Shown here: piece after piece, positions 34,823-35,973 of the stretch
Layout of the letters: every line of letters starts with the position of its first letter
Numbering within the stretch: position 1 is the stretch's first letter
Source of the DNA: Escherichia coli
GTDB taxonomy: Bacteria; Pseudomonadota; Gammaproteobacteria; Enterobacterales; Enterobacteriaceae
Reading direction: 5' to 3' (one strand)
Assembly (NCBI RefSeq): GCF_965641715.1
Contig: NZ_OZ282453.1
Length of the DNA: 64,000 nt
Notes under the pieces: generated by a model
Told to the model about the DNA's origin: nothing
Database searches by the model: none
The model's input: the letters and a program-made list of their open reading frames with translations, nothing else
Made by a program: the position numbers and the translations under genes

Positions 34823-35032
34823 TTAGTTAGAGTTAATTAGCTTATCAATCTCTGTAAGAGGTAAAGTTGTCACCTCTGCAACGTCTTCCCGAGACATCCC
34901 TTTACTTAGAAAACGCTGGGCGAATTCCTGTCTTACCTTCTGGAGTTCCTCTTGATATCCCTTCTGAAATCCCTTCTCTTCAAACCACTGCGCCAACGTC
35001 TGCCTGGTTTCTCTCCGTGTCTTTATTTCCAT
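34823..35032 (-). CDS. Orphan Rpn C-terminal-domain (RpnS-like) small protein, 69 aa; diverged duplicate of the rpnC tail
   Basis: ORF MEIKTRRETRQTLAQWFEEKGFQKGYQEELQKVRQEFAQRFLSKGMSREDVAEVTTLPLTEIDKLINSN aligns with the last ~50 residues of the adjacent rpnC product; own ATG with aggga SD 5 nt upstream; DNA is a direct repeat of 35101..35266. Confidence 0.6.
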   Translation of the reverse strand: MEIKTRRETRQTLAQWFEEKGFQKGYQEELQKVRQEFAQRFLSKGMSREDVAEVTTLPLTEIDKLINSN

Positions 35033-35100
35033 AGGTTCCCTTAATTATCTGGTCAGTTAACAATAACAATTATCTGGCTATAACTGATGATGCAGACAAC

Positions 35101-35253
35101 TTAGTTAATCAGCTTATCAATCTCGGCAAGGGGTAAATTTGCCATCTCTGCAACGTCTTCCCGAGACATTCCTTTATTCAGAAGACGCAGGACGAATTCT
35201 TGCCTTTCCTCCTGTCTTCCCCTCTCTTCAAACCACTGCGCCAGCGTCATCAT
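35101..35253 (-). CDS. Putative internal RpnS-type small ORF in the rpnC reading frame (MMTLAQWFEERGRQEERQEFVLRLLNKGMSREDVAEMANLPLAEIDKLIN)
   Basis: in-frame ATGATG at 35253/35250 preceded 4-5 nt upstream by GGGAGGGGAG (reverse complement of 35257..35266). Confidence 0.45.
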   Translation of the reverse strand: MMTLAQWFEERGRQEERQEFVLRLLNKGMSREDVAEMANLPLAEIDKLIN

Positions 35254-35973
35254 AGACTCCCCTCCCGTTTCCCTGTCTCTCAGCACACCATAAAACAAAT
35301 CCGCTTGTTCAGTATGACCGCGTTGCAGCATATAGTTTTGCATGGCAACTAACTGACTTCCGCTAGTGTACCCTTCGTCAATCAGCGTGACCAGTTGCTC
35401 CAGCAATAACATTAAGTCGCGCTGGCGAATATGTTTTTGCAGTAGTTCGAGAATCGCAATCCGCCGATGTTGCATGATTTCGTCATCCGGTGTGATGGTG
35501 ATATCCACCAGCGGGAAAGGACTGTTATAGACGCGTCGCGCCAGCTCCGGCGAGTAAAACATATCAAACCAGCACATTGAGAGCGGATAAGGTGTGGCCT
35601 CGCCCTGATAAAACAGTATCGGCACCACCAGCGGCAGCTTATCGTGGTCAGCCTCCAGATGCCGGTGCATGGCGGCAATAGAATAACGCATCATGCGAAA
35701 AGCCATTTTCTTATCTGGCTTGCTTTGATGTTCAATCACTACATGCAGATAACCGGGATTGCCCTGCATTTGCACGGAATAGAGCACGTCCGTGCTGTGT
35801 CCTTTCAGGCTCTCTTCAATGAAACTCCCCGACTCTAAATGAAGCGTATTGAGGTCACAAAGTTCGCGTAATTCCACTGGCAAATGTATCTCCAGAAAGT
35901 CGCGAGCCGTCTCCGCATGCATTAAAAATTGTTTAAATACCGCGTCATGCGGTGTGGTACTCGGTGCATCCAT
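35101..35973 (-). CDS. rpnC: Recombination-promoting nuclease RpnC (YadD; YhgA-like PD-(D/E)XK family)
   Basis: 290 aa; MDAPSTTPHDAVFKQFLMHAETARDFLEIHLP; family and synteny between panC and panD. Confidence 0.85.
   Translation of the reverse strand: MDAPSTTPHDAVFKQFLMHAETARDFLEIHLPVELRELCDLNTLHLESGSFIEESLKGHSTDVLYSVQMQGNPGYLHVVIEHQSKPDKKMAFRMMRYSIAAMHRHLEADHDKLPLVVPILFYQGEATPYPLSMCWFDMFYSPELARRVYNSPFPLVDITITPDDEIMQHRRIAILELLQKHIRQRDLMLLLEQLVTLIDEGYTSGSQLVAMQNYMLQRGHTEQADLFYGVLRDRETGGESMMTLAQWFEERGRQEERQEFVLRLLNKGMSREDVAEMANLPLAEIDKLIN

Follow-up and report, generated by a model that had tools for sequence, protein, structure and literature searches.

Directly downstream of rpnC, the 64,000-nucleotide stretch of Escherichia coli DNA analysed here (from contig NZ_OZ282453.1; hereafter the window) carries a 69-codon open reading frame (ORF) that is very probably a standalone second copy of the small-protein/antitoxin module of RpnC, mismatched with its neighbour and serving as a recombination partner. 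This ORF is rpnCSs, named by Zhong, Jiang, Hickman, ... Storz (2023, PNAS 120:e2307382120; PMC10400941). A sequence-only reading of the same DNA had implied that the arrangement was new; however, that work had already described and named the gene, noted that its repeats vary, and reported that it can disappear through deletion or fusion. Between the published gene and the one in the window nothing essential differs, both being derived from RpnC, and the window holds the common allele pair of a 290-aa RpnC and a 69-aa RpnCSs. What is added here to the published account is the frequency of the two-copy locus (1555 of 5426 complete genomes), the constant length mismatch between the two copies, the occurrence of rpnCSs in E. 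marmotae, and an allele that carries the reciprocal triplication.

Within every rpn gene of E. coli lies the coding sequence of a small protein, RpnS, which is the antitoxin of the full-length nuclease; the first helix of the tail common to RpnL and RpnS holds 4-residue repeats, and strains differ in how many there are (PMC10400941). In the same work, RpnCSs was found to group with RpnCS and to have arisen independently from RpnC, and the RpnSs proteins were found to vary by 4-residue repeats as well. Loss of rpnCSs was ascribed either to deletion or to fusion to the rpn N-terminal domain, RpnL proteins were proposed as possible initiators of such recombination events, and K-12 was shown to make both RpnCS and RpnESs (PMC10400941). 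A search of the literature turned up no subsequent study of RpnSs function.

Table. Features of the rpnC locus, in positions of the window.
Feature	Position	Strand	Basis or remark
panC	33876..34727	+	convergent neighbour of rpnCSs/rpnC
GC-rich hairpin between rpnCSs and convergent panC, 12-pair stem	34732..34762	.	fold z-score -2.5
rpnCSs, standalone RpnS-type gene, 69 aa, ATG start	34823..35032	-	ORF, BLASTP, TIGR01784
Direct-repeat block D1, 112 nt, 85% identity, spacing 272	34831-34942 vs 35103-35214	-	repeat finder
Hypervariable stretch of rpnCSs, KGFQKGYQEELQKVRQEF	34922..34975	-	WFEE-to-KGMSRED segment of 24 aa
Direct-repeat block D2, 51 nt, 80% identity, spacing 248	34950-35000 vs 35198-35248	-	repeat finder
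Spacer between rpnC and rpnCSs, 68 nt	35033..35100	-	without terminator-like fold or sigma-70 consensus match
rpnC (RpnC-L, recombination-promoting nuclease RpnC), 290 aa, ATG start	35101..35973	-	ORF, TIGR01784, PF04754
rpnCS, intragenic small ORF, 50 aa (MMTLAQWFEE...), in-frame antitoxin module	35101..35253	-	start region as in MG1655
Hypervariable 4-residue-repeat stretch of the main tail, RGRQEERQEF	35194..35223	-	WFEE-to-KGMSRED segment of 16 aa
panD	36247..36627	+	divergent neighbour of rpnC

The main gene of the locus is complete. A profile search matched RpnC to TIGR01784 over residues 8-288 (E=6.5e-80), PF04754 is on record for a protein identical to the 290-aa RpnC of the window, and by these two families the PD-(D/E)XK nuclease domain at the N-terminus is present at full length in an unbroken frame. 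Over residues 1-244 the protein does not differ from K-12 RpnC, and the nucleotide changes between the two genes in this part, 11 in number, are all synonymous. Among the alleles collected in this work, this RpnC has the shortest tail. The Shine-Dalgarno (SD) sequence of the internal rpnCS ORF, GGGAGGGGAG, lies at about 35257-35266, and from this motif through the start codons the window and MG1655 have the same sequence. In MG1655, the internal start has been mapped with ribosome profiling and RpnCS has been seen by SPA tagging (Zhong et al. 2023, PMC10400941), and we infer that this start is used in the strain of the window too.

rpnCSs is a separate, co-oriented ORF that begins 68 nt past the rpnC stop codon, with its own start and an SD motif (TAAGG, 35039..35043) 6 nt ahead of the ATG. 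BLASTP aligned its product to residues 235-290 of RpnC with 63% identity (E=1e-21) and a single 8-residue gap, the two proteins ending in ...LINSN and ...LIN, respectively. At the DNA level, the similarity consists of the two ungapped direct-repeat blocks listed in the table; the offset of 24 nt in their spacing corresponds to an 8-codon indel, and block D2 contains an identical 21-nt stretch, TGGCGCAGTGGTTTGAAGAGA, which is the site of one observed crossover junction (allele L017, discussed below). The likeness of the two tails, judged from their sequences, is far beyond chance. The earlier description of a diverged direct repeat of the rpnC 3' tail, made into a standalone RpnS-like ORF with its own ATG and SD, a short insertion, and altered last residues, was in these respects accurate.

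Profile searches place the small protein in the same family. RpnCSs matched the C-terminal positions 213-273 of the 273-position TIGR01784 profile (E=2.8e-08), and PF27070 (HTH_Rpn_C) is on record for its close homologs; a direct Pfam-A search with the 69-aa protein gave no significant domain. The AlphaFold2 model of RpnCSs consists of four helices (mean pLDDT 73). Foldseek matched it to the crystal structure of RpnA-S (PDB 7TH0; 41 aligned columns, rmsd 0.8 A, TM-score 0.84 when normalised by the target, probability 0.85), but with an E-value of 2.4, which is not significant, and at rank 18 among generic HTH domains. By this model, we infer a helical, RpnS-like fold. A sequence search of the PDB with RpnCSs returned a designed 'CAP repeat' protein and weak HTH matches only, and did not find RpnA-S. 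PADLOC reported a weak RmrA match for RpnCSs (E=5e-4) and no match for RpnC.

The limits of the duplicated unit could be placed at both ends. On the 5' side it starts at ACG(C/T)TGGCGCAGTGG, encoding T-L-A-Q-W, that is, from codon 3 of RpnCS, and on the 3' side it extends about 15 nt beyond the stop codon (TAAGTTGTCTGC in other alleles). In addition, the second copy has gained the SD-ATG of its own and an 11-residue N-terminal extension, MEIKTRRETRQ. Local alignment of the spacer plus these 11 codons to upstream rpnC was no better than alignment of shuffled sequences, and a sensitive blastn search with the junction sequence (spacer plus N-terminal extension) found no match besides the rpnC locus in 5426 complete E. 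coli genomes.

Within the spacer, no match to a sigma-70 promoter consensus or to a terminator was detected, and the fold z-score was -0.35. The hairpin ahead of panC is the sole terminator-like structure 3' of rpnC, and K-12 RNA-seq shows rpnC and panC to form a convergent excludon, in which the 3' transcription of both genes overlaps (PMC12288877). As there is no terminator between rpnC and rpnCSs, transcription of rpnC and of the short internal rpnCS transcript probably continues through rpnCSs. The start codon of rpnCSs itself is probably used, giving a small helical protein of the RpnS type.

The rpnC locus was found in 5424 of the 5426 complete E. coli genomes, and a 103-nt query made up of the spacer and the rpnCSs N-terminus detected the two-copy junction in 1555 of them (28.7%), with 93-100% identity, always on the chromosome, and as a single match per genome in nearly all positive genomes. 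The second copy is missing from the remaining 71%. Among the genomes with a single copy are MG1655 and BL21, in which a 300-aa RpnC ends 73 bp from panC, against 373 bp in the window; the K-12-like locus measures 1331 bp and that of the window 1601 bp, a difference of 270 bp. K-12, the strain used for the published experiments, has no rpnCSs. The exact 69-aa RpnCSs is listed in 11038 index blocks of a public assembly collection, and in every place sampled it adjoins a 290-aa RpnC. Standalone homologs that begin with MEIKTRRETRQ or MDIKTRRETRQ were found in E. coli, E. marmotae, and cryptic (unnamed) Escherichia clades, and the SD, ATG and N-terminal extension are kept as far as E. marmotae and these clades. 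From E. coli to E. marmotae at most 7 of the 103 positions of the query differ, the count in E. marmotae being 7. The products are 57-77 aa long, mostly in steps of 4 aa, and differ in blocks such as FQKG, YKEGLQKG and VRQE.

The sequence-only reading had given K-12 a 300-aa protein and a locus about 270 bp shorter, and had described repeat numbers as varying between strains; the survey agrees with it on these points. Single- and double-tail configurations both occur, and neither outcome that would have refuted that reading was seen: MG1655 is without the second copy, and intact homologs of the ORF are abundant. None of the 13 distinct DNA alleles examined has a broken rpnCSs frame, and 38 of 40 sampled genomes carry the gene as an annotated CDS. 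The annotation itself varies between 'hypothetical protein', 'RpnC/YadD family protein', 'transposase', pseudogene, and none at all; the pseudogene call was made by PGAP in RM9872, which is the nearest complete genome. For the conserved codons, pairwise dN/dS ranged from 0.0 to 1.3, estimates that rest on few sites and are noisy, so that purifying selection is not demonstrated. A tblastn search of plasmid records gave no sign of a plasmid-borne rpnCSs: 8 of the 10 matches fell at rpnC loci of chromosomal appearance, in records of 0.4-4.9 Mb, and the tenth was a partial match in a 150-kb record. An exact-pattern scan for the junction in one genome per species gave as its sole match an E. coli-like contig in a metagenome-assembled genome labelled Oscillospiraceae, which is not informative on the species range.

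We collected an allele sample of 23 distinct configurations, 18 of which were two-copy pairs. From WFEE to KGMSRED, main genes have a segment of 16-56 aa and rpnCSs copies one of 20-32 aa, and in none of the 18 pairs were the two lengths equal. In the window, the variable helix of RpnCSs has 24 residues against 16 in RpnC, making it 8 aa, or two repeats, longer. Some of the differences between main gene and rpnCSs are not multiples of 4, owing to a 2-residue indel in one rpnCSs lineage (RQEFA vs RLA). The same rpnCSs allele was also found beside main genes of different length, in one case 306 and 310 aa and in another 314 and 330 aa, and the main tail thus changes faster than the rpnCSs tail. 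Given the wide spread of lengths and the relatedness of the alleles, the absence of any match among the 18 pairs is suggestive and not statistically compelling.

As the sequence-only reading had suggested, RpnCSs could be an extra antitoxin; as a cognate one, it would raise the RpnS:RpnL ratio and help to silence the resident RpnC. In favour of this, RpnCSs shares the RpnCS domain and has its own conserved SD-ATG, K-12 produces the analogous RpnESs/YpaA, and antitoxin activity is established for RpnS proteins (PMC10400941). However, a mismatch of a single repeat abolishes neutralisation of RpnC by the small protein (Fig. 4D, PMC10400941), a result that comes from one engineered RpnC pair and is extrapolated here to RpnCSs. 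Given this specificity, a helix that is 8 residues longer than that of the resident RpnC, the lack of length-matched pairs, the differences that are not multiples of 4, and the pairing of one rpnCSs with main genes of different repeat number all weaken the case for a cognate antitoxin, and we consider this role unlikely. Rather, the length mismatch together with the published one-repeat specificity predicts weak antitoxin action of RpnCSs on the neighbouring toxin: it probably does not efficiently neutralise the resident RpnC-L, and more likely self-associates instead.

Alternatively, the gene might be a decaying, functionless remnant, either of a partial duplication or of a displaced old tail, which persists because it is young or neutral. 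The uneven PGAP annotation (pseudogene, hypothetical protein or nothing in some genomes), its absence from 71% of complete genomes, noisy dN/dS estimates of up to about 1, and the lack of a significant Pfam-A domain are all compatible with this. Yet the arrangement is common to E. coli, E. marmotae and the cryptic clades, all of which keep the start, the SD and the N-terminal extension; every DNA allele examined has an unbroken frame, and the gene is called as a CDS in nearly all sampled genomes (13/13 and 38/40, as above); and repeat number keeps varying as it does in functional RpnS proteins. We therefore regard decay as improbable. That the similarity of the tails arose by chance, or from a faulty assembly of the window, can be dismissed almost entirely, being refuted by the BLASTP E-value of 1e-21 and by the same two-copy locus in 1555 independently finished genomes.

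Supporting the reading of rpnCSs as a recombination partner of the rpnC tail, several alleles carry traces of exchange between the two copies. In one isolate genome contig (L047), a single-copy rpnC ends in ...LINSN, the ending of rpnCSs, 81 bp from panC, making it a fusion allele. Conversely, a single 814-bp metagenome contig (L017) carries the allele of the window plus an extra unit, in the order spacer, rpnCSs N-terminus, main tail, spacer, rpnCSs, and panC. Its junction falls inside the identical 21-nt block of D2, and its structure is the reciprocal product expected of the unequal crossover that makes fusions. In a third case (L007), rpnCSs ends in ...AEMANLPLAEIDKMIN, and its 3' half is identical to the single-copy main tails of two other alleles (L009, L010). 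As far as allele structures can tell, these cases show that the two tail copies recombine with each other and that tails move between positions. The tail swapping envisaged in the sequence-only reading is thereby supported by a fusion and a triplication allele with breakpoints inside the repeat.

The same reading had assigned to K-12 the other of the two tail types, which proved incorrect. A K-12 rpnC built from the N-terminal domain of the window's gene and the tail of its rpnCSs would fit in length (290+8+2=300), but the sequences do not agree. The K-12 tail (KGIEKGIQQGRQEVSQEFAQRLLSKG...KVINLI) is 89% identical to the main tail of the window and 88% identical to rpnCSs, and combines features of both; by these comparisons it is a third, mosaic type. 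For counting fusions across genomes, a chimeric megablast query that joined the main-gene upstream region to the rpnCSs variable region was uninformative, as nearby pieces get joined and ordinary two-copy loci score full-length.

The 4-residue repeats of the first helix set the specificity with which RpnL and RpnS pair. As the alleles show, the second copy acts as a homologous recombination partner of the rpnC tail, and unequal crossover or gene conversion between the copies gives rise to single-copy fusions, to the reciprocal three-tail allele, and to mosaic tails. Each exchange alters the oligomerisation tail of the toxin and the in-frame antitoxin together.

Related systems offer points of comparison. 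One is ypaA (rpnESs), which like rpnCSs is a standalone copy of an rpn tail directly past its parent gene, in this case rpnE of K-12. Its protein was detected by SPA tagging, and by phylogeny it arose independently from RpnE (PMC10400941). Unlike rpnCSs, it belongs to another tail sequence family and is present in K-12. RpnCS shares with RpnCSs the same domain, with a conserved TLAQWFEE...KGMSREDVAE...DKLIN core, and has been shown to act as an antitoxin, with the number of repeats deciding its specificity (PMC10400941). The sequence of RpnCS is necessarily that of the tail of its toxin, whereas RpnCSs is encoded by a separate gene and differs in its 11-residue N-terminal extension, its length, its C-terminal SN, and its repeat type (FQKG/YQEE/LQKV against RQEE).

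A further parallel is found in the polymorphic rhs and cdiA genes, just downstream of which lie spare, diverged 3' cassettes that can be recombined in via a conserved junction, switching specificity. These orphans consist of toxin tips and immunity genes, usually without translation signals. rpnCSs, in contrast, is an oligomerisation/antitoxin module with its own SD-ATG, and the likeness is an analogy only. We tentatively put forward, as a possibility that we hold with limited confidence, that RpnCSs could be an expressed tail cassette of alternative specificity and not the antitoxin of its neighbour. Such a cassette, found today in E. marmotae, in cryptic clades and in many lineages of E. coli, would be ancestral in Escherichia, and K-12-like lineages would have lost it through fusion or deletion. 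As in the rhs/cdi orphans, unequal crossover would bring it into rpnC, perhaps with RpnC itself as the stimulus, resetting the specificity of toxin and antitoxin in one step.

The window adds no new kind of element to those described, and its additions are modest: in the sampled alleles, no rpnCSs matches its neighbour in length, and a reciprocal crossover product exists with its junction within the repeat. In Rpn systems, which are both toxin-antitoxin and antiphage modules, the tail of the toxin is itself the antitoxin, and a spare, mismatched tail beside rpnC bears on the question of how such a locked toxin/antitoxin pair can change its specificity.

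The nuclease gene rpnC of the window departs from that of E. coli K-12 MG1655 unevenly along its length. Over its first 244 codons (window 35242..35973), the two genes differ at 11 nucleotide positions and at no amino acid, and divergence at the protein level is confined to the last approximately 50 codons.

A metagenome contig carried a three-module allele of the locus, in which the N-terminus of the orphan tail gene rpnCSs is fused to a tail of the type that ends rpnC itself, followed by the spacer, the 69-aa orphan, and panC. This allele is near-identical to the window sequence, with at most 1 mismatch per 30-nt word, and its fusion junction falls within a 21-nt block common to both tail copies. 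Judged from this single short contig, the allele looks like the reciprocal product of an unequal crossover. In another assembly, rpnC was broken into ORFs of 136 and 153 aa, with an intact 65-aa orphan downstream; this may represent a nuclease-dead locus that has retained the small gene, or else an assembly error.

Features of the rpnC locus in comparison sequences
Feature	Locus and position	Source	Remark
rpnCSs	L002 274-453	RM9872	instance of inconsistent NCBI annotation
Split rpnC locus	L026 559-1432	Logan SRR27381294	
Approximately 220-bp rpnC-panC insertion	L008 ~180-400	E. coli F1267	same class: locus-search hits H7-H9
Three-module allele	L017 1-814	ENA ERZ27229452 k115_66508	
rpnC/rpnCSs junction sequence	L049 3885-3937	CALXDF010000219.1	

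The E. coli-specific sequence spanning the rpnC/rpnCSs junction was also found on a 4.3-kb contig of a metagenome-assembled genome labelled "uncultured Oscillospiraceae"; this contig most probably comes from Escherichia and was assigned to the wrong bin. A few genomes contained the junction sequence at 2 or 3 places, with a maximum of 3 per genome; the place inspected in E. coli NR3736 (NZ_AP040205.1, hit H117) was a normal panD-rpnC-rpnCSs-panC locus. In the plasmid collection, 8 of the 10 "plasmid" records that matched the orphan protein were 0.4-4.9 Mb in size and had chromosome-like rpnC loci, and therefore appear to be whole or partial chromosomes deposited under a plasmid label. The labels given to rpnCSs by NCBI were inconsistent from genome to genome: some records call the gene a pseudogene ("missing N-terminus"), others name its product "hypothetical protein", "RpnC/YadD family protein", or "transposase", and in others it is left unannotated.

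In some strains with a single tail copy, an insertion of approximately 220 bp lies between rpnC and panC in place of the orphan. The insertion of E. coli F1267 contains a long imperfect palindrome (…CCCCAGTCACTTACTTATGTAAGCTCCTGGGGATT…), and appears to resemble an ERIC/IRU element. In E. coli ET450 (NZ_CP100958.1, hit H34), an IS1A-family element is annotated inside the matched panC-rpnC-panD stretch, which again suggests that rearrangements are tolerated here.
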